From an uncultured Clostridia bacterium (lineage in GTDB: Bacteria; Bacillota; Clostridia; TANB77; CAG-508), in NCBI GenBank assembly GCA_944388015.1, contig CALXHD010000001.1:1-35492 (forward strand): a stretch of 35,492 nucleotides of DNA, read 5' to 3'. Shown piece after piece: positions 1-32,269 of the stretch (within the stretch, counting starts at the first letter, position 1; the number at the start of each line of letters is the position of its first letter). The position numbers were made by a program, and so were the translations under genes. The notes beneath the pieces are model-generated. The model was not told where the DNA came from and searched no databases. It was given only the letters and a program-made list of their open reading frames with translations.

Positions 1-149
1 ATACTTGCTATATATTTATTACTTGCAAAACAACTTTTAGTTTCTTCACTTAAATACAAAATCATAGATAGTATTATTTTTTCTTTATCTGATATGTTTA
101 ATAAAACTTCTACTGGTATCCATAGACCTTTTAATTTTTGCATTTTCAT
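1..149 (-). CDS. Phage/plasmid-type helix-turn-helix protein, N-terminal fragment (gene runs off the left edge)
   Basis: Not in the ORF track because there is no stop in the window. The reverse complement reads MKMQKLKGLWIPVEVLLNISDKEKIILSMILYLSEETKSCFASNKYIASI. GGAGGA lies just upstream, and its spacing favours the second ATG at 143. The pattern '(W/F)IxVPxxLL..LSxxEKxxLSxIxxLS....CFASNxYIA' is typical of HTH_36/DnaD-like proteins of prophages and plasmids. Confidence 0.6.
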   Translation of the reverse strand, partial: MKMQKLKGLWIPVEVLLNISDKEKIILSMILYLSEETKSCFASNKYIAS

Positions 150-193
150 ATCCTCCTTTCGCTTAGTTTAATTAACATTAATTTTGATTAAGT

Positions 194-229
194 ATAAAAA
201 ATAAGCCTTAAGATTTACTCTTAAAGCTT
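194..229 (-). terminator. Rho-independent terminator downstream of the 778-aa ORF
   Basis: On the minus strand the hairpin is AAGCTTTAAGA-gtaaa-TCTTAAGGCTT followed by ATTTTTTAT. It lies 18 nt after the stop at 247. Confidence 0.6.
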
Positions 230-246
230 TAAGTTTTTATATATTA

Positions 247-2583
247 TTAATTTGCATTTAAATATCGATTTGTAATTTTTCTTATATTATAATTATTGTT
301 TTCTAATAGTTTTTCTTTAATATCTTTAATATCATTTTCCTCAACATTTTGATATAATACTATCTTTATTATTTCTCTTGCTTCTTCAAATATACATTTA
401 TTTGCATTATCTTTCATTAATTCAATCATTTTAATATAATACTTAGTTTTTAATAATATTTTCATTATTGAATATGATTTACATTTTATGTCTATATCAA
501 ATTCTTTATTGTAGGAATATATGAATGTATAATATAATTGATTTTCTATCTCTGTTTCTTCTAAGTTGATTTTTTCATTTATATAATCAAAACACTTTAA
601 TACTTCTAAAATATTATCTTCATTATCAAAAATAGCTTCACAAAAATTGTCTATCAATTCTTCTTGGGATATCATTTTTAAGAGAAATTCTAACATCATT
701 TTATTAGTATTTAAGTCTTTTATTGTGCAATTTCTAAACTCATCATCACACATTGATTCAAAGTCTATTTTATTTATTATATTCAATAAAATATCTCTAT
801 ATTTTTTAGTATCATTTCCCATTATTAAATTAGATAATATTTTTATGTGTCTTATTTTTTCATATATTGTTTGATTCTTTGATGCTAAAATTCTTGTAGC
901 AAGTGGAATATATCGGCTTAATATTAATTTTTCCAAATCTTCAGAATAGTTTTCATTTGAAAAAGAATCTCTTCCTATCATATATTCATTTGCATATCCT
1001 GTTAATAGACTAGGATTGCTTTCTCTTTGATTAGTTCTTTCTTCCATAATATCTATTATTTTTTCTACAGTAACATAATTATCTTTATCTTCAACTATAT
1101 TATCTATTATTATATTATATCTGTTTTCATATATAACTTCATCAAATTTATTATTTTTTGTTATTTTTTTATAATTTGCTATTGCATCTATTATATTTAA
1201 ATTATGTTTTTTTCTTTCTATTATCATTCTTTCTAATAGCTTTTCAAATATTTCTAGTTCATTTTCACTTAATTGCTCTATTTCCAATAAATTCATAATT
1301 TCAGAAATTTCAATGTAAAATCTTGAATATTGATTTTCAAAATAACTTAAAAAAATTTGTAATAATCTTTCTTTATTATTTAACCTTGATATATTATGTT
1401 TCAATGCTTTTAAAATATCGTGAACATTATTAATATTAATTTTTTCGTTTATCTCTATTTTAGATAACATTATATTTTCCAGTTTTAGATATTCATCATC
1501 TGATAAATATTTTCCAAATATTTTATATATAAAGCAATTATAATTATCTATATAAAACTTAATAACAGTGTTTCTTTGATTTAGTAAGTTATTAACAAAT
1601 TCATTACTGTATATTTTAGAAGTCCTACATCTTAATGAATTAAATAGTTGCTCAAATTTCTTTGTATTATTGCTTAGAAGCAACATCTTTAAAGAGGATA
1701 AATATAATTCTTCATCTTCTAATGCATCTGCATAGAGATATAATATATCAGATAAAAGTTCTCTACTAAGTTTAAGATGCGTTATAGAGCCATAAAAAAT
1801 AGTAACATATATTAGTTTTTGAATTTCATTACATATATTCCTTAATCCATTTGAATATATAATAGTGTATTTACTCTTGTATTTATATCTAAAAGAATTT
1901 TTATGAGCTTCTTCATATATATTGGTTTTTATTCTATCATATATTGGATTTGCTAATATATGCTTATTTTTATTGATTTCTTCTTGGAATTCATCTTTTA
2001 TTTTATATTTGTTATTTTGATTGTTGTATTGTATATTTATATTCCTACCATCAATTAATATATCATCCTTAAAATATGATTCTATTTTATCTCCATTTTT
2101 TATTTTTATTAGTAACTTTTCATACAACTCTACACTACTTTCAATATTCCCTTTAAAGTATTCAAACATAGCTGTCCATCTTTCTTTAATAATGTCATCT
2201 TCATCCATATCGAATTCTCTTTTTAGTTCATTTTGAAATTGCTCTAGTAATTGAATTGGAAAATCTCCCTTTCCTATTACCCAATCTATAATAGCCTTTC
2301 CAAACTTTAATGAGATACTTTTAAAATTATAGTCATCATTTTTATAACTCCAAAATAAATTTGAAAATAAGTACCCTTCTAATTCCTCAAACTTATTTAC
2401 ATATTTATAATAAAATTCTGAATATTTGTTCTTAGTTGTTACTTCTGGATTTAAAATGTTATATATTTGAAATACATTATACTCTGTATTATCACCATTT
2501 ATCATTTTTCCATTTGGTCCATCTATTTCATTATTTTTTAAAACTTTTTCTATTATTTCTTTATTCCCTGTTTTTATATTCAT
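247..2583 (-). CDS. Large hypothetical protein (~778 aa), N/K/I/E-rich and apparently all-helical, with no recognisable catalytic motif
   Basis: Long uninterrupted ORF (track 247..2595). The track's initial ATGGAG looks like the SD (GGAG 6 nt before the ATG at 2583), so I start at MNIKTGNKEII. I found no Walker A, HEPN Rx4-6H, nuclease or other motif by eye. It overlaps the upstream small ORF by 23 nt, which suggests translational coupling. Confidence 0.75.
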   Translation of the reverse strand: MNIKTGNKEIIEKVLKNNEIDGPNGKMINGDNTEYNVFQIYNILNPEVTTKNKYSEFYYKYVNKFEELEGYLFSNLFWSYKNDDYNFKSISLKFGKAIIDWVIGKGDFPIQLLEQFQNELKREFDMDEDDIIKERWTAMFEYFKGNIESSVELYEKLLIKIKNGDKIESYFKDDILIDGRNINIQYNNQNNKYKIKDEFQEEINKNKHILANPIYDRIKTNIYEEAHKNSFRYKYKSKYTIIYSNGLRNICNEIQKLIYVTIFYGSITHLKLSRELLSDILYLYADALEDEELYLSSLKMLLLSNNTKKFEQLFNSLRCRTSKIYSNEFVNNLLNQRNTVIKFYIDNYNCFIYKIFGKYLSDDEYLKLENIMLSKIEINEKININNVHDILKALKHNISRLNNKERLLQIFLSYFENQYSRFYIEISEIMNLLEIEQLSENELEIFEKLLERMIIERKKHNLNIIDAIANYKKITKNNKFDEVIYENRYNIIIDNIVEDKDNYVTVEKIIDIMEERTNQRESNPSLLTGYANEYMIGRDSFSNENYSEDLEKLILSRYIPLATRILASKNQTIYEKIRHIKILSNLIMGNDTKKYRDILLNIINKIDFESMCDDEFRNCTIKDLNTNKMMLEFLLKMISQEELIDNFCEAIFDNEDNILEVLKCFDYINEKINLEETEIENQLYYTFIYSYNKEFDIDIKCKSYSIMKILLKTKYYIKMIELMKDNANKCIFEEAREIIKIVLYQNVEENDIKDIKEKLLENNNYNIRKITNRYLNAN

Positions 2584-2740
2584 AATTATCTCCATTTACC
2601 ATTTTAGAATTATCTCCAGTCATTTTATTTGATTTTAATTCTTTATTATATTTATATGAATTATAAGTAATTCCTCCTAAAAATGCTCCTATGAATGATG
2701 TTATTATAGGAATTATTATATCTGTAATAATTTCTTTCAT
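2561..2740 (-). CDS. Small single-pass membrane protein (59 aa; 64 aa if started at 2755)
   Basis: The sequence is MKEIITDIIIPIITSFIGAFLGGITYNSYKYNKELKSNKMTGDNSKMVNGDNYEYKNRE, with one hydrophobic helix followed by a polar tail. GGAGG lies 8 nt before the ATG at 2740. A consensus promoter lies upstream. Confidence 0.6.
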   Translation of the reverse strand: MKEIITDIIIPIITSFIGAFLGGITYNSYKYNKELKSNKMTGDNSKMVNGDNYEYKNRE

Positions 2741-2784
2741 ATTATTTTCCTCCATATATTAATTTTTTACTTTATTTTTACATT

Positions 2785-2812
2785 ATTATATGATAATTTT
2801 TTAATATGTCAA
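2785..2812 (-). promoter_or_regulatory. Sigma-70/SigA-type promoter for the small-TM/large-ORF operon
   Basis: The minus strand reads TTGACA (2812..2807), a 16-nt spacer, then TATAAT (2790..2785). It sits about 45 nt upstream of the small ORF. Confidence 0.55.
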
Positions 2813-2872
2813 ATTTTTTCTATAATACTTCCCTAATCCACTCATTTATTTTATGCTTGTCCGATGTATCAA

Positions 2873-3229
2873 TCAAATATCGCAATCCCCTGGATATGAA
2901 AATGTTGCTTCTTTATATCTGCCAATTATTGCTCCAACTATTATCACAGATGACCTCATTTGATGCATTAATATATCAGGTATTTCATATTTATCTATAT
3001 TGCTTGTATCTATAATTACTTTGTTTTTCTTTTTTTGTACATTTCCACCCAAGATTTTAATTATTTCATACATTTTTTGTGTATCTTGTATATTAGGTAC
3101 ATTATATAATGTAGTTATTCCCTTATTTAAAATAGTTCCTGCAATTATTGGTAATGCTGAATTTTTAGAACCTGATATTGTTACTGTTCCTTCTAATCTA
3201 TTTCCCCCTTTTATTATGTAGCTTGACAT
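2873..3229 (-). pseudogene. murA: UDP-N-acetylglucosamine 1-carboxyvinyltransferase (MurA), 5' remnant of 118 of ~420 codons
   Basis: MSSYIIKGGNRLEGTVTISGSKNSALPIIAGTIL...RSSVIIVGAIIGRYKEATFSYPGDCDI* aligns with the MurA N-terminus up to the catalytic PGGC loop. It then stops, and no further MurA-like sequence follows in any frame. A strong SD (AAGGAGGGG) is retained. Confidence 0.8.
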
Positions 3230-4343: not shown

Positions 4344-5031
4344 TTAAACATCTCCTTTTATATCCCAATGCCAAGTTCCTTTATTTTCAGGTAATAGTTT
4401 AAATTCTAGTCTTTCTTTAGTAATTGGATGTTCAAAGCTCAAATAATACGCCCATAATGCAATTTGTTTACCCTTTCCTCTCTTTCCGTATTTTTGATCA
4501 CCAAATATACTATGTCCAAAATTTGACAATTGAACTCTTATTTGATGATGTCTACCAGTATACAAATTTATTTTTACTAAACTCAAGTTTTTATCAGGCT
4601 TATAGGCAATAACCTGATAATCTAATTTAGCATATTTTGCATTTTTTTTATCTTTATTAACAACTTTACTAATATTATTTCTTTCATCTTTATACAAATA
4701 ATCTTCTAATGTCCCGCTTCTTATTTTCAAACTTGCCATCAACAACTGCTAAATACATTTTTTTCATAGTCTTTTCTCTTACTTGATTACTAAGCCTTGA
4801 CGCAGATTTTGATGTTTTAGCAAATACCATAACACCACCAACAGGTCTATCTAACCTATGTACCAACCCCACATACACATTTCCAGGCTTATTATATTTT
4901 TCCTTTATATATTGTTTAACAATTGAAAGCATATCTATATTTCCTGTTTTATCAGATTGTGAAGCAATATTTACAATCTTTTGTACAACTAATATATGAT
5001 TATCCTCAAATAAAACATTTAACTTTTCCAT
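4344..5031 (-). pseudogene. RluA-family pseudouridine synthase interrupted by a +1 frameshift
   Basis: Two overlapping track ORFs (4690..5031 and 4344..4745) together make one RluA-type protein (HRLDRPVGGVMVFAKTSK ... GRHHQIRVQL). The frames join at about 4717-4723 (..ENK|SGTLEDYLYKD). Confidence 0.8.
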
Positions 5032-11163: not shown

Positions 11164-13494
11164 ATGAAATTTATAGACAAATTTTTGAAAAAATTAAATA
11201 CTAACAGAAATAATTTTGCAACATATATTTTAACACTTATAACATTATATATTGTTGTAGATAGACTTGTTGAAATATTATTAATTATATTCACAGGTGT
11301 TTCTTATTCATATTGGGGACCTATTAAATATTGTTTAGCAATGGCTTGTCCTATGCTTGCATATGCATTTTCAGTCCCTTCAGAATATTCAACATCAAAA
11401 GCACAAAAAGTAAAAATATTTTATACCTATATAATCCTCTTAACTGTAATAGTAGCATCTATGTTTACACAATGGCTAAATAAAGGGATTTGGCTTTTCT
11501 TAATATCTGTTCCAGATTATGAAGACTTAGTTACAAATTTCTCAGAATTATTTAGACCTGCATTAACATCAATATCTTTATTTATCCCTATAGCTATTGG
11601 GTATAAAATTTTTAATTTTCTATATTTTGGTGTAAATGATTCAACAGATCAAACACGTTCTATTTGGGATTATGCAGGTATTGATTTATCAGACAAGAAA
11701 AAGGATACTGGTCCATATACTTGCGAGTTATTTATGTTTAATGACTCTGAAACTGGTAAAAGTGCTGTATTACCTGAAGTTTCAAGATTTCAGTCAACTT
11801 TTGTATGCGGTGGTTCAGGTAGTGGAAAAACAGCTTTAGTTTATGAACCATTTATAGCAAGAGATTTAGAAAAGAAATTCTTCTTCAGCCAAGTTGCAAA
11901 AGAAATGGGATATACTGCATTAAAAACTAATATTGCAGTACTTAATAAACCATATGATAATGAATATTTAAATAAAAATTTTAATTTAAATATGTTATTA
12001 CCTGCATATGGAAAAGATACAATTTACAAAGCATATATGAAAAAAATGCTTATAGCAGATTCTCCTGAATACATTTATAGAAATTGTGGAATTACGGTGA
12101 TGTCACCTGATAAAGAAATTTCAACACATATGGCAGATGTTGCTAAAAACTTTGGCTTTACATACAACATAGTAGATCCATCTGATCCAAATTCTATTGG
12201 TATAAATCCATTTGTGTATGATTCTCCTTCTAAAATCGCAATTACTATATCATCTGCTTTAAAAGCTATGTATGAAGATACACATGAAGACTTAACAGAA
12301 GTTTATAGAGAAGACTTTACTAGACAAGCAATTGAAAATTTAGCAATTATTTTAAAAGAAATGTATCCTAGAATGCATGAAGGTTTATTACCTAATTTAG
12401 ATGATATGTTAAAAATGTTTGTAAATTTTGATTTAATAGAAAAAATGTGTGAAATAATGGCACATGACGAAAATTTAAAAGAAAAATACTCAACACCTTT
12501 AGCATATTTTAAAAAGAACTTTTATAAAAACTCTCCTGGTAGAGAGACAACAGAAAAAGGCATTTCTGAAGCTATATCTCTATTAGATAATTTATTAAGA
12601 TTAGATGGTGTAAAATCAATCCTTTGTAATAGATATAATAACATAAATTTTGATGATGTATTAGCAAATGGGGAAATAACTTTTGTATGTACAAGACGTG
12701 GGGATTTAGGAGCAAATAGTCATAAGGCTTTTGGATTATTTTTCTTAATGTCAATGCAAAATGCAGTATTAAGACGTCCTGGTTCTGAAAAAACTAGAAT
12801 TCCACATTTCCTATATATAGATGAATTTCCTGACTTTATAGGAAAATATACAGAACCAATATTTACAATGTATCGTAAATATAAAGTAGGAACAACAATA
12901 TCAGCACAAAACTTAGATCAATTAACACCTGCACATTCTAAAGGTTCTTACAGACAAACAATCTTAGCTAATTGTGTAAATAAAATATTTACAGGAAATG
13001 CAACTGTAGAAGATTTAAATTGGTGGGAAATTGAACTTGGTGTACACAGAGAATGGAAATTTGGAAATACTATTGATTTTAATAAGATGGAATATGACTC
13101 TAAACATGGAAATGTTGAATGGAAATGGACAACTAACTTTAAAGTTGGAAAAATGCAAAACTTTGGTCAAAAAGATTGTGCATTTAAAATTAGAACAGCA
13201 AATGGAAAACCACTTATAGGACAGGGCAAAATGAATTTCTTAGATTCTAAATATAAAGAACCACAAAAAATCAAAAAATTTGATTTTGGAAAATATTCTG
13301 ATAGTGTAACAACTTCAACTGAAGATCATGAAAACGGTATTAGAAAGCCAAAATTTAATCCTAGGAAGCTTGATTTTCTAGATGAAAACAATGAATTTAA
13401 TCCAATACAAACAGATAATACAGATTCTAAATATCTATTTGATAATGAAGATGCAATTGTTGTGAATTTAAAAAAGAATAGTTCAAATGACTAA
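11164..13494 (+). CDS. TraG/TraD/VirD4-family (type IV coupling protein-like) membrane ATPase, orphan
   Basis: About four N-terminal hydrophobic helices are followed by Walker A VCGGSGSGKT and Walker B HFLYIDEFPDF. Then comes the T4CP signature ...KVGTTISAQNLDQL...ILANCVNKIFTGN, and an acidic, low-complexity C-terminal tail. Confidence 0.75.
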   Translation: MKFIDKFLKKLNTNRNNFATYILTLITLYIVVDRLVEILLIIFTGVSYSYWGPIKYCLAMACPMLAYAFSVPSEYSTSKAQKVKIFYTYIILLTVIVASMFTQWLNKGIWLFLISVPDYEDLVTNFSELFRPALTSISLFIPIAIGYKIFNFLYFGVNDSTDQTRSIWDYAGIDLSDKKKDTGPYTCELFMFNDSETGKSAVLPEVSRFQSTFVCGGSGSGKTALVYEPFIARDLEKKFFFSQVAKEMGYTALKTNIAVLNKPYDNEYLNKNFNLNMLLPAYGKDTIYKAYMKKMLIADSPEYIYRNCGITVMSPDKEISTHMADVAKNFGFTYNIVDPSDPNSIGINPFVYDSPSKIAITISSALKAMYEDTHEDLTEVYREDFTRQAIENLAIILKEMYPRMHEGLLPNLDDMLKMFVNFDLIEKMCEIMAHDENLKEKYSTPLAYFKKNFYKNSPGRETTEKGISEAISLLDNLLRLDGVKSILCNRYNNINFDDVLANGEITFVCTRRGDLGANSHKAFGLFFLMSMQNAVLRRPGSEKTRIPHFLYIDEFPDFIGKYTEPIFTMYRKYKVGTTISAQNLDQLTPAHSKGSYRQTILANCVNKIFTGNATVEDLNWWEIELGVHREWKFGNTIDFNKMEYDSKHGNVEWKWTTNFKVGKMQNFGQKDCAFKIRTANGKPLIGQGKMNFLDSKYKEPQKIKKFDFGKYSDSVTTSTEDHENGIRKPKFNPRKLDFLDENNEFNPIQTDNTDSKYLFDNEDAIVVNLKKNSSND

Positions 13495-26243: not shown

Positions 26244-28806
26244 TTACCTATCAACAAACTGAAATATGTTTTGTATTCTGATTATTTTCCCATCTTTATT
26301 TATTTTAATACCTATTTCTCCCATCTCGTCTGTCCTGTAAATTTTAATGTTCATACTCTTTAAATTATCTATTGTAATATCTGCTGGATGTCCAAAATTG
26401 TTGTTTTTTCCTACTCCAATTAATGCAATTTTAGGAGACACTTTTTGCAAAAATTCTTTATTAGATGATGTTTTAGAACCGATGATGTGCAATTTTTAAT
26501 ATATTTGCTTTTAAATTAATATTTTTGTTCAATATTTCTTTTTCTGCTATTTTCTCTATATCTCCTGTAAAAAGCAAAGAAAAGTTTTTATATATTAATT
26601 TAAATACCAGTGAATTGTTATTTATTGAATTTTCTAATATTTGCTCATTTTCTCCTGGCCATAAAATATTTATATATATATCTTTTTCTATCTTTATTTT
26701 CTGCCCCAGTTCTGCTACAATAACATTTATTTTTTTGTTATATACAATCTCTAAAAATTTTTTGTAGTTTTCACAAATTTCAAATTGCTTTCCAATAATA
26801 ATATTTTCCACATTTAAATTTTCCATTATAGTAAAAGCTCCTTTTACATGATCTGTATCAAAATGACTTAATATTACATAATCAATTTTTGTATATCCTC
26901 TATCCAATATATATGGCAATAACGTGTTTTTTCCAATATCATATGTCTCAGAACCTCCACCATCAACTATAATTGTCTTTCCTCTAGGAGTTTTTATAAA
27001 AGTTCCATCACCTTGTCCCACATCTACGAAATAAATATCTAAATCTTTTGGAATAATGTTAAATAAAAATATCAATAAAATTACTAAAATAAAAACTATT
27101 TTTAATAATCCTCTTGTCTTTTTATTAATTCTAAATTTTATATAAAATTTAAAAACTGCCAATAAATTTTTAAATCTTTTAAGAGTAGTTTTCAAATCTG
27201 TGTTATTATATAAAATGAAAATAATAAATAATATTGTAATTATTACAAAATACAGAATAATTTGGAAAATATGTGGTGTTGATAAATAAATAACTGAAAA
27301 TGGTAATCTGCCAACATTTGATATAAATAATAGGATTTTTATAAAGAAAATAACAATTGCTGAAAATAAATTCGCTAAATTTTGATTTAAACATAATAAA
27401 AATAGGAATATAAAACTAGTACACATTATTGCCTCTGTTATAAAACCTACAAGTAAGTTAGAAATTAAAAAATATATACTAAATGTATTGAAATGAAATA
27501 TACTAATAGGCAAAACTATCAATTGAGCAGATATTGTAACAGATGTCATGTTAATAATTTTATTTAATAATTTACTTGTTGACTCTTTTGCAAATATCTT
27601 TATTAATATTCTGTCTATTATCTTTTGGAACAATATTATACCAATTGTCCCTCCATATGATAATTGAAAGCCTATATTTAATACATTATAAGGATTAGAT
27701 ATTAAAATTAGTAAACTTGAAATTGCAATATTATTCCAAGTATCATTAGGTTTATGTAGTATTTTTGAAATCAAAAGCATTACTCCCATTATTACTGCTC
27801 TTACAACAGATGGTGCAAAACCAGTAATAAACATATATAATATGGTTATAAAAATAGAAATAAAGTATGAAATTCTTTTTCCGAAAAAAACTTTTGAACA
27901 TAAAACAGTTATTGATATCAAATATGTTATATGTAGACCTGATATTGCAAGTATATGTGATAAATTTGCATTTCTAAAATTTTCTTTTATATTATCTTCT
28001 ATTAAACTAGTATTTCCCAATAATAAGGCAATAATCACACTTGAAACATCTTGAGGCAACATATTTTTTATCTTATTTTGTAAATCTTCTGATAATTTTA
28101 ATGATTGTATTTTTATATTTGTAATAAAACTGGGGTTACTATATGCAAAACTTTTTAATTTTTTTATTTTTGTTGCTTCTAAATTTCCTATTATACCAAT
28201 CGTTTTTAGATATAAATTATAGTCAAACCCTTTATAGTTTCTCTTTCCCACTGGTGTATCAAAATTACCAGTAATTTCTATAATATCTCCTATTTTTTGG
28301 CCTTGATTTAAATTTTTGTTATTATTTTTTTGTTTAATAATTACTTTTTCATTATTCATCTTTAAAATATTACCAGCTATTTTTGCTTTTTCTAGAACCA
28401 ATGTATAATTTTTTTCATATTCTTTATCTGTTATTAAACTCTCTATTCTCCCAATAAACACTACATTGTCACTTTTTTCTAAATTTTTTTGTAAATTCAT
28501 ATATCTATTCTCATTCAGCCTAATTATATAACTTGATAAACATGCTGTTATTAATAATATCAAAATACTATTAAAATTCAAGTATAATTTGATATATCTA
28601 AAATATCTATGACTTTTTTTATAAAATGATGTTTTTTTATCTATTAGAAAAGTCTTTCTGACTTTCCTAATAGATAAATGAATAATTATAGCAATTATAA
28701 AAAAAAGAAGAACTATACCTTTTTTAAAGTATAGTCCCTCAATTATACCTAAAATATATCCAATTGCTATAATTAAAATCGGCCTTTTTGTTGTAAAATT
28801 CAACAA
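26244..28806 (-). pseudogene. comEC: DNA internalisation competence protein ComEC/Rec2, frameshifted in the metallo-beta-lactamase domain
   Basis: Track ORFs 26473..28806 and 26244..26492 join as ..LKIAHH|GSKTSSNKEFL.. once one extra C near 26480 is removed. The DUF4131/OB, polytopic Competence and Lactamase_B (HFDTDH) regions are all present. Confidence 0.85.
28637..28677. repeat. Dispersed palindrome copy embedded in frame within comEC
   Basis: TTATCTATTAGAAAAGTC-tttct-GACTTTCCTAATAGATAA has one arm mismatch. It is translated as HLSIRKVRKTFLIDK between N-terminal TM helices. Confidence 0.7.
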
Positions 28807-31331: not shown

Positions 31332-31369
31332 TTTTATTACAGTCCTTCCTTTTTGTTTTTGCTATTATA

Positions 31370-32269
31370 TTATTTATTTCCTATTTTGTCAATAATTTGC
31401 CTTAAGTCTTGTACAGAAAAATCATATTTTTTATTACAAAAATGACATGTTAGTTCAGCCCCATTGTCTTGTTTAATAATATCTTCTAGTTCCTCTTTTC
31501 CTAAAGTTTCTAATGCTTCTGCCATATGTTCTTTTGAACAATCACACTTATATATAGGGACTATATTTTCATCTATTATTTTTACATTTTCATCTCCAGT
31601 AATCTTTTTGGCAATTTCTTCTAAACTCAAATTCTGATCAAGCATTTTAGATACTGCACCTGCTTTAAGAATATTTTGTTCCAATCTTGAAATTTCTTCT
31701 TCAGTTGCATCAGGCATTGGTGTTACTATATACCCTCCTGCTGATCTTACACCATCTTTATCAACCAAAACTCCTAAACCTACTGCAGTATTTTTTTGTT
31801 CTGATTTTGCAAAATATTCAGCAAAATCTTGTGCAATCTCTCCTGAAACTAAAGGACATATCCCTATATATGGTTCTTTTAAGCCCAAATCTTTTATAAC
31901 ATTAATATATCCTTCATTTCCAACTGCTGTAGAAACATCTAATTTTCCATCTTCATTTAATGGTATATCTACCACTGGATTTGATACATATCCTTTTACT
32001 ATTGGTTTATTATATGCTGTAACAAGCATTTGACCAATAGGACCATTTCCCTTTATCTGTATAGTTAATTTATCTTTTACACTTTTCATATCACATGCCA
32101 TTAAGCTGGCTACAGTAAGTACTCTTCCAAATCCTGCTGTTACAACTGGGCTTAAATCATGTATCTTTCTTGCCTCTTCAACTAACTCTGTTGTATTTGC
32201 ACATATTAAAGATACTTTCCCATCATATGCTAATAATTTTATTATTTTATCTGCCATTTTTACCATCAT
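31370..32269 (-). CDS. hslO: Redox-regulated chaperone Hsp33
   Basis: The Hsp33 fold sequence is present, with the C-terminal zinc centre CDCSKE...CHFCNKKY. The start is ambiguous among M1, M2 and M5. Confidence 0.9.
   Translation of the reverse strand: MMVKMADKIIKLLAYDGKVSLICANTTELVEEARKIHDLSPVVTAGFGRVLTVASLMACDMKSVKDKLTIQIKGNGPIGQMLVTAYNKPIVKGYVSNPVVDIPLNEDGKLDVSTAVGNEGYINVIKDLGLKEPYIGICPLVSGEIAQDFAEYFAKSEQKNTAVGLGVLVDKDGVRSAGGYIVTPMPDATEEEISRLEQNILKAGAVSKMLDQNLSLEEIAKKITGDENVKIIDENIVPIYKCDCSKEHMAEALETLGKEELEDIIKQDNGAELTCHFCNKKYDFSVQDLRQIIDKIGNK

Follow-up and report, generated by a model that had tools for sequence, protein, structure and literature searches.

A small transmembrane protein and a large helical solenoid protein that share a short peptide: a candidate abortive-infection cassette on mobile elements of low-GC gut bacteria

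In the Bab/Agp system, which mediates abortive infection in E. coli, a 109-residue effector composed of an N-terminal hydrophobic helix and a C-terminal 20-residue BASS11 motif is activated by an adjacent TPR-type sensor, Agp, whose N-terminus bears this motif as well (Ibarlosa et al., 10.1101/2024.11.07.622273). In Vulcan, sensor and effector form a single protein made of NIR and HEAT parts, which protects by abortive infection and has a small phage protein as its trigger (10.64898/2026.09.04.749371); DUF4062/NIR is a TIR-like NADase domain with experimentally shown anti-phage defence (10.64898/2026.05.01.722283; 10.64898/2026.09.04.749371). We describe here a two-gene cassette found on the minus strand of a 35,492-nt stretch of DNA (hereafter the window; contig CALXHD010000001.1 of assembly GCA_944388015.1, from an uncultured Clostridia bacterium), which encodes a small membrane protein, S, and a large helical protein, L. 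Both proteins carry a copy of the same Asn/Gly-rich peptide of about 23 residues, and amyloid signalling of the Bab/Agp kind would be the closest analogue of the pair. Judged by comparison with its relatives, the balance tips slightly towards the cassette being an abortive-infection-type two-gene module that forms part of the cargo of integrative and conjugative elements in low-GC (low guanine plus cytosine) gut bacteria. The S-L pair is unannotated and without a match in the defence library; its design principle and its sensor scaffold have recent precedents.

The S-L pair and its shared peptide

The features of the cassette and of the adjoining element end are collected in Table 1. The ATG at 2740 is the likelier start of S because a GGAGG (2753–2749) lies 8 nt upstream of it, and gene callers likewise give a protein of 59 residues on sister contigs. 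A GGAG located within S precedes the ATG of L at 2583 by 6 nt; with this start the two genes overlap by 23 nt, and the database record of the window L corresponds to the 778-residue form, the 782-residue form having no exact match. Perfect TTGACA/TATAAT promoter matches occur twice in the window, versus 0.17 expected from shuffled sequences; the other one (TTGACA-N17-TATAAT) is found at 31364–31392 on the minus strand. The rest of the window holds no paralogue of L, and the other open reading frame (ORF) of about 777 residues (26473–28806) was set aside, as it encodes ComEC and is not a relative of L. The initial annotation of this DNA had proposed the promoter, a protein of 59–64 residues with one transmembrane helix, an overlap of 23 nt with the Shine-Dalgarno sequence of the large gene inside the small one, and a terminator behind the operon; all of these were recovered at the positions given in Table 1, S having one hydrophobic segment.

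Table 1. Features of the S-L cassette and of the adjoining end of the mobile element in the window
Feature	Coordinates	Strand	Remarks
Whole cassette (promoter, S and L)	244..2835	-	insertion/deletion polymorphism relative to the sister element in contig L047
Sigma-70-type promoter TTGACA-16 nt-TATAAT (predicted)	2812..2785	-	12/12 match to consensus
Gene S	2740..2561	-	59 residues, single-pass membrane protein; alternative ATG 2755 gives 64 residues
Transmembrane helix of S, residues 4–22 (predicted)	2731..2675	-	conserved IPL..GF.GG..G small-residue motif
Shared motif copy 1, C-terminal tail of S, KELKSNKMTGDNSKMVNGDNYEY	2644..2576	-	also holds the Shine-Dalgarno sequence and start codon of L
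Gene L	2583..247	-	778 residues, alpha-solenoid; alternative start 2595 gives 782 residues
Shared motif copy 2, disordered N-terminus of L, KVLKNNEIDGPNGKMINGDNTEY	2547..2479	-	97 nt 3' of copy 1
Most conserved core of L, DDILIDGRN ... H..L..P..DR ... YGSITHLKLSR	2067..1762	-	L residues ~174–273; invariant among 23 aligned sequences
Intrinsic terminator, hairpin and T-run	229..203	-	fold -15 kcal/mol, z = -3.8
murA stump, codons 1–118	3229..2873	-	TIGR01072 positions 1–119 of 416; ends ...PGDCDI*; upstream of cassette
Junction sequence, end of murA stump and element end	2836..2915	-	near-identical in two hosts (window, L047)
HTH_36/replication-initiator-like gene, start only, runs off the window	149..1	-	Pfam HTH_36 6e-5; PHROG replication initiation protein 1e-5

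Homologues of L, approximately 775–793 residues long, form at least 128 clusters at 90% identity, and a profile search with the small proteins recovered at least 143 clusters of the S family at the same identity. The conservation of the two genes as neighbours, which the first description of the locus had left to be established, is complete: S lies directly upstream of L in all complete loci examined (26/26 distinct pairs, the most divergent members reached included), as an ORF of 50–74 residues with one hydrophobic helix, and the frame relation is the same throughout. Indeed, L is always in the +1 frame relative to S and its start codon always lies inside S, more precisely, in all loci with a 5' end, within an Asn-Gly (AAT-GGx) codon pair of the small gene, the overlap ranging from 14 to 38 nt. 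Among the S-family matches listed, lengths are 50–74 residues with one exception of 114, and none is fused to a larger domain. As these S proteins are unfused and S always stands 5' of L, the two are exclusive partners.

The last ~23 residues of S closely match residues ~15–40 of L. In the window, KMVNGDNYEY in the tail of S corresponds to KMINGDNTEY at the N-terminus of L; the respective sequences are KMNNKNTTFNNNGDVFNGDKK and KMNNKNTNFNNNGDVFDGDKK in locus L009, and DKRKINNKKAIYQNVGEIYNGD and DKRKVDNSNALYQNVEKVINGN in locus L010. Local alignment of the S tail with the N-terminus of L gives a score of 78 for the window and a mean of 77 over 22 loci, versus 25 ± 5.9 for shuffled tails. Moreover, the two copies co-vary: over 26 pairs the mean score of each tail with its own partner is 73.9, versus 46.9 ± 2.9 after permutation of the partners, and 0 of 20,000 permutations reach the observed value. 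Both copies fall in segments that are disordered in the AlphaFold2 (AF2) models, residues 40–59 of S and 1–57 of L. Concerning their origin, the offset between the copies ranges from 64 to 97 nt over 22 loci (73 nt in 15 of them) and equals 1 modulo 3 in 22/22, which is the signature of an out-of-frame tandem duplication; the two copies evidently come from such an event.

The hydrophobic segment of the window S (residues 4–22) has a mean Kyte-Doolittle hydropathy of 2.06, and the AF2 model shows a confident helix from residue 2 to 39 followed by the disordered tail, where the predicted local distance difference test score (pLDDT) is below 50. Analysis of 44 members of the family gives the same picture, with a mean hydropathy of the segment of 2.1 and a G-x3-G / GF.GG..G motif in 44/44. 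A G-x3-G face is typical of self-associating helices. The flanks of the helix differ in net charge, -0.75 on the N-terminal side and +3.6 over the 15 residues that follow the helix, an asymmetry from which an N-out/C-in orientation with the tail in the cytoplasm is predicted. In the same 44 proteins the tail is composed of 25% Asn, 16% Lys, 9% Gly, 8% Val, 1% Leu and 0% Pro. The reading frame, the transmembrane helix and the tail are intact across the 143 clusters. Searches of S against Pfam, NCBIfam, PADLOC and PHROGs gave no usable match. A phage holin or lysis cassette was considered and rejected, since the matches of S to PHROG holins are faint (E of about 0.1–0.2), no endolysin partner is adjacent and neither GenBank phages nor IMG/VR contain a member of the family. 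In the most divergent pair (P0132; L046 625–816) the N-terminus of S looks amphipathic and not clearly transmembrane, the shared motif being recognisable, and the effector of this branch may differ.

The AF2 model of L is an all-alpha solenoid of 40 helices (mean pLDDT 83.7, predicted template modelling score 0.81) preceded by 57 residues with pLDDT below 50. L contains no Walker A motif and has no match in Pfam, NCBIfam, PADLOC or PHROGs, nor in the PDB by single-sequence or profile searches; no Pfam domain was detected in any of the L clusters, and no source gives a descriptive name. Foldseek against the PDB retrieved generic HEAT/ARM solenoids only (best E 5.6e-3, TM-scores at most 0.41), namely CAND1, the PP2A A subunit, karyopherins and the sensor part of DSR2, and against the viral structure library BFVD it gave nothing better than E 0.17. 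The large protein had been described as helical and devoid of recognisable signatures, which agrees with these results, and homology to a phage structural, replication or housekeeping family was found for L neither by sequence nor by Foldseek. The identification of L as a STAND/NLR-type sensor (Avs, bNACHT) was rejected, given the lack of a Walker A motif and of an NTPase match in Pfam and NCBIfam, and the all-alpha model. Residues R135, D174, D178, N181, Q200, P213, D216, R217, G265, S266 and H269 remain invariant also when the HNH-, SMEK-, DUF4062- and metallophosphatase-fused homologues presented below are added to the alignment. This invariant polar site of the superfamily, with the patterns D..ID.RN, YP..DR and GS.TH....R, looks like a ligand-binding, switch or catalytic site.

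Relatives of L and described systems

An exhaustive profile search identified 454 relatives of L, and N-terminal domains were counted in the best 145 representatives. Relatives outside the clade of ~780-residue proteins mostly comprise 870–960 residues, the additional length being N-terminal. A DUF4062-like N-terminus (VFISS...; best Pfam DUF4062 match 9e-5) is present in 94 of the 145, an HNH domain in five (PADLOC PDC-M68A 5e-23, CBASS 'Effector Endonuclease', SAVED-HNH) and SMEK_N in one (Pfam 1.9e-21); one of the 94, P0181, also carries a calcineurin-like phosphoesterase (metallophosphatase), which matches a PADLOC effector model at 1e-43. Alignment by hhalign of the window clade with 20 DUF4062-fused proteins extends over 713 columns, that is, the whole solenoid (probability 100%, E 4e-63), and several of the DUF4062-fused relatives have Pfam HEAT matches. 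The window L itself has no DUF4062 match, its N-terminal 57 residues being the disordered stretch that holds the motif. This suggests that the solenoid is a sensor scaffold that takes different N-terminal effectors, and that in the window clade the effector slot is occupied by the motif matching S.

The combination of an N-terminal effector with a C-terminal HEAT sensor in these DUF4062-fused relatives recalls Vulcan, and homology between L and the Vulcan protein (Enterobacter, WP_050009967.1) is plausible by analogy of architecture. The body of L, about 720 residues, is homologous to that of the ~900-residue DUF4062-fused proteins as given by the alignment above, and both are found next to restriction-modification (RM) systems on mobile elements. 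L differs from the NIR(DUF4062)-HEAT type of Vulcan in that it has neither the NIR/DUF4062 domain nor the catalytic Glu, the putative effector being a separate membrane miniprotein. A link to Swarozyc, a DUF4062/NIR NADase system (10.64898/2026.05.01.722283), was rejected, the auxiliary domain of KpSwz being a small winged HTH and not this solenoid.

Compared with Bab/Agp, several traits recur. As in Bab/Agp and in the BASS pairs of Bell and NLR proteins, a small effector gene would lie directly upstream of a large sensor gene; S, like the Bab effector, begins with a hydrophobic helix and ends in a motif of about 20–25 residues; and the motif stands at the extreme N-terminus of a repeat-containing, non-NLR protein, L in one case and Agp in the other. 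The arrangement of amyloid-signalling pairs, with one motif at the C-terminus of the effector and the other at the N-terminus of the receptor, is found in 26 distinct S-L pairs, which, like Bab/Agp, also occupy mobile defence hotspots. In its high content of Asn, Gly and Val and its scarcity of Pro and Leu the motif agrees with BASS motifs. On the other hand, S comprises only 59 residues with a true transmembrane helix, has no Pfam match and is too short to leave room for the helical sheath of Bell or 'Babybell' effectors, whose Bell/HeLo-type domain includes a conserved 'MEPIS'-type N-terminal region; L is a HEAT-like solenoid without the TPR-GreA/B-C-PIN domains of Agp and without an NTPase; and the motif (..NNGDVINGD..) seems unrelated to the BASS motifs (families BASS1–11) and is Lys-rich, its core NNGDVINGD lacking the G-phi-Q-phi-G signature of BASS3/RHIM (10.1101/2020.01.06.895854). 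S and L differ from Bab/Agp, moreover, by their out-of-frame overlap and by motif copies that are a tandem DNA duplication. Whereas the NLR/Bell architecture is rare or absent in Firmicutes according to Dyrka et al. (10.1101/2020.01.06.895854), the hosts of the S-L pair are low-GC gut bacteria whose metagenome-assembled genomes (MAGs) bear Firmicutes-type labels.

Two further systems share parts of this design. The effector-associated domains (EADs) of Kaur, Burroughs, Iyer and Aravind (PMC7159879) are small non-enzymatic modules present on a core protein and, as a second copy, on the product of an adjacent effector gene, while some related systems have core protein and effector joined in a single polypeptide; both arrangements would have their counterparts in the S-L family. 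However, EADs are folded domains on NTPase-centred systems of multicellular bacteria (PMC7159879), whereas the S-L module is a disordered peptide of ~23 residues without a Pfam match and L has no NTPase domain. With respect to DSR2, the Foldseek match to L (8wyb_A, E 1.3e-2) has TM-scores of at most 0.2 and is a fold match generic to solenoids; the resemblance to DSR2 would lie in the plan of a single large protein with an N-terminal effector and a helical-repeat sensor, but L has no sequence similarity to it and no SIR2 domain. DSR2 itself is a SIR2 NADase with a C-terminal alpha-solenoid that binds a phage tail tube protein.

The element in murA and other genomic settings

In the window the cassette stands between a murA stump and the start of a replication-initiator-like gene (Table 1). 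A marmot-gut contig, L047, with a chromosomal background that differs from that of the window, shares with it the 118-codon stump, the junction sequence, the terminator and the HTH/replication gene, of which L047 holds a full-length homologue of 184 residues. From the stump and junction shared in a different host background it follows that the element integrates in murA, evidently in a site-specific manner at about codon 116, and that the left end of the window lies inside a mobile element; both the interruption of murA at codon 118 and the position at the edge of such an element had been pointed out in the initial annotation. The 3' part of murA must sit beyond the left end of the window. Over the junction of about 80 nt (window 2836–2915, L047 895–975) the two sequences differ by one mismatch, murA being diverged further upstream; either the element supplies the end of the stump, or it recognises a highly conserved attachment (att) core around the catalytic Cys codon. 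When window and L047 are compared by local alignments, two blocks are obtained (window 2960..2836 with L047 1019..895, and window 243..1 with L047 881..612), which are separated by 13 nt in L047 versus 2,592 nt in the window. Thus, the promoter-S-L unit (244–2835) is a discrete cassette that was gained or lost within the element, and the terminator, since it is also present in the cassette-less L047, belongs to the backbone of the element and not to the cassette. As to the HTH gene, which had been taken for one of phage or plasmid type, the match to HTH_36 and replication initiators stands, but the phage flavour of the setting finds no support, the pair being absent from recognised phage and prophage collections.

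Other members of the family occur in comparable settings. The pair of P0088, whose L is 37% identical to that of the window, is divergent from a tyrosine integrase and is followed, with a 4-nt overlap, by a DUF4238 gene (PADLOC DUF4238-Pers 2.5e-10); downstream come HTH_17, replisome-organiser and DnaC-like genes and then, depending on the locus, a type III-like or an AlwI-type RM system, while GmrSD, nSTAND1-Mrr or DEAD/MZB helicase genes are present on the far side of the integrase. In the closer relative P0039 (75–76% identity) one end of the element is occupied by the pair and the other by a large serine recombinase. P0071 lies in a defence island comprising AAA_21, MazG-like, SLFN-type helicase, NUDIX, PLD-DEAD-DUF3427 and AAA_15 genes, and P0079 and P0123 belong to conjugative elements, having relaxase and type IV secretion genes as neighbours, with SMODS and SLATT_4 nearby in one of them. 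On an integrase/relaxase element, the DUF4062-fused relative P0149 comes immediately after a type III-like RM operon, and one copy of the S-L pair adjoins a SocA_Panacea antitoxin-type gene. Integrases, a serine recombinase, a defence island and conjugative cargo regions therefore surround the homologues, so that the mobile or defensive setting presumed for the window is also found elsewhere.

All 24 genome matches of L (24/24) are uncultured low-GC gut MAGs labelled as Clostridia, Bacilli, 'Tenericutes' or Erysipelotrichaceae, and the family is common in human and animal gut metagenomes. No match was obtained by tblastn of L against GenBank phages or of the DUF4062-fused P0149 against PLSDB plasmids, and a scan of IMG/VR retrieved no relative of the pair. 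An interpretation of the cassette as prophage cargo was dropped for lack of relatives in GenBank phages and IMG/VR.

Some additional observations concern the neighbouring genes. In some clades a third gene is coupled to the pair by 4-nt overlaps, DUF4238 downstream (L029–L032 12373–13368) or DUF5677 upstream (L041–L043 7065–7850); the window cassette has neither partner. The P0039-type element (L025–L028 12400–21400) also encodes large ORFs of about 720, 970 and 546 residues, for which Pfam yields only an mTERF-like and a weak DUF1292 match. The remainder of the window is ordinary chromosome, with tag, ogt, uvrC, glmS, a Clp ATPase gene, htrA, comEC and others. In this part, an RluA-type pseudouridine synthase gene is apparently split on the minus strand (4344–5031) into an ORF with HRLDRPVGG (4690–5031) and one with GRHHQIRVQ (4344–4745); these ORFs, identified by eye from their motifs, point to a frameshift, a pseudogene or an assembly error. 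A 776-residue ORF on the plus strand (11164–13494), also among chromosomal genes, has a weak coupling-protein-like match (T4SS-DNA_transf, E 2e-6) and may be either FtsK-like or what remains of another conjugative element.

Possible modes of action

The initial annotation had put forward a defence module consisting of a small membrane effector and a large sensor, and the comparisons presented above lend support to this idea through the effector-fused relatives of L and the co-varying shared peptide. Coupling of S and L through the motif is held with less confidence than the defence module as such. According to the preferred reading, a transmembrane helix, a linker and the solenoid would have been encoded by one ORF in the presumed ancestor, with the helix in the effector slot; the out-of-frame tandem duplication, of about 73–97 nt, would have split this gene into S and L, each with one copy of the motif, and the two copies would pair homotypically. 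L would act as the cytoplasmic HEAT-like solenoid sensor, and S, whose N-out/C-in helix presents a glycine-zipper-like face and whose basic tail would lie in the cytoplasm, as the effector. Upon binding of a phage component, or of a component of another incoming element, L might oligomerise, its clustered N-terminal motifs would recruit or template the tails of S, and the helices of S would then assemble into a membrane lesion, so that the infected cell stops and the infection is aborted. Experiments on Bab/Agp in E. coli have shown this kind of logic. A more specific version, which we regard as rather unlikely, is a minimal prion-like switch in gut Firmicutes in which a HEAT sensor without an NTPase would template the ~23-residue Asn/Gly-rich motif and thereby activate a 59-residue pore-forming peptide, the motif pair having arisen from one frame-breaking duplication.

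Several points weigh against this interpretation of the pair. The motif is rich in Lys, which makes up 16% of the S tails, a residue depleted in the amyloid signalling motifs published so far (10.1101/2020.01.06.895854). Known effectors of the Bell/HeLo type are far larger than S, which leaves no room for a helical sheath. PADLOC-DB v2 gives zero families at E up to 1 for S and L of the window, in line with the earlier failure to match the pair to any named system, and the homologue P0088 gives the same result. Vulcan is likened to the relatives of L by architecture only. At the level of the DNA, the likeness of the two motifs could be kept by gene conversion between repeats 64–97 nt apart, and the motif on the S side could reflect the Shine-Dalgarno sequence and ATG of L that it encodes (GGAGAT ... 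AATGG) and not pairing. Identical residues have the same codon in both copies in 230 of 309 cases (74%), a value only modestly above the codon-bias expectation in a genome of 20–25% GC.

These last points lead to an alternative that we consider unlikely, in which the motif is a leftover of the duplication that split the gene and has no coupling role, S and L being independent or S dispensable. It would account for the constant offset of 1 modulo 3, for the GGAG and ATG of L being built from Asn-Gly-Asp and Asn-Gly codons of S, and for the resemblance of the copies in nucleotides (identity 0.59–0.92, mostly about 70%) and in codons. However, synonymous differences between the copies are common, so that gene conversion is not recent in most loci, and the frame, helix and tail of S have been kept throughout the family. 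Furthermore, the copy on the side of L is free of translational constraint and predicted to be disordered, yet it is conserved, with G34 invariant among 23 sequences whose bodies are 32–92% identical to the window L; this conservation favours a role of the motif at the protein level.

If the motif does join the two proteins, S may also be a membrane anchor, the motif tethering L permanently to the inner face of the membrane, where L would block DNA entry, so that superinfection by phages or entry of competing conjugative elements is excluded without killing. We give this possibility as little credit as the preceding one. The inferred ancestor, with a transmembrane helix fused to the solenoid, would itself be membrane-anchored; several copies lie within or next to the type IV secretion and relaxase genes of conjugative elements, a frequent place for exclusion functions; and the window cassette is at the edge of an integrated element, adjoining the att junction. 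Against an anchor speak the G-x3-G face kept in every S analysed, the nature of the N-terminal slot, which in the homologues holds toxic enzymes (NADase, HNH nuclease) and not anchors, and the many copies found in defence islands without conjugation genes.

A function other than defence, either addiction and maintenance of a toxin-antitoxin-like kind or lysis for the element itself, seems quite improbable. The constant association of the pair with mobile elements, the copy beside the SocA_Panacea antitoxin-type gene and the faint holin-like matches of S would fit with it, but the pair has no endolysin partner and is missing from both phage genome collections and IMG/VR, the element can lose the cassette and be otherwise intact, as in L047, and the homologues bear effector domains typical of immune sensors. 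Least credible is an S-L fusion as the active species, made by a programmed +1 frameshift or by repeat deletion and possibly phase-variable: L is in the +1 frame everywhere, a Shine-Dalgarno-like GGAG precedes the overlap and S and L would be reunited in one ORF if a repeat unit were lost exactly, but the overlap, 14–38 nt in length, contains no conserved slippery or shifty-stop sequence, no fused transmembrane-solenoid protein occurs among the best 145 representatives of the L superfamily or the S-family matches listed (50–114 residues), and the copies are mostly too diverged for efficient recombination.

Returning to the abortive-infection module as the preferred interpretation, a gene family without annotation gains a testable prediction, namely defence against phages or mobile elements, with a putative effector small enough to be synthesised. 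The pair would link three current themes of bacterial immunity: the modular exchange of effectors on a common sensor scaffold, membrane effectors of small size, and the coupling of a sensor, through short motifs present on both sides, to an effector encoded in trans. The duplication being still legible in the DNA, it would offer a clean case of a fused immune protein turning into a two-component one. Its hosts are understudied, uncultured gut lineages with reduced genomes, and little is known of their defence repertoire. Should the templating scheme be true, no effector smaller than S would be known in the amyloid or 'shared-motif' signalling class, this class, which has been reported from multicellular bacteria and E. 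coli, would reach further, and a simple evolutionary route would lead from fused to two-component immune systems.

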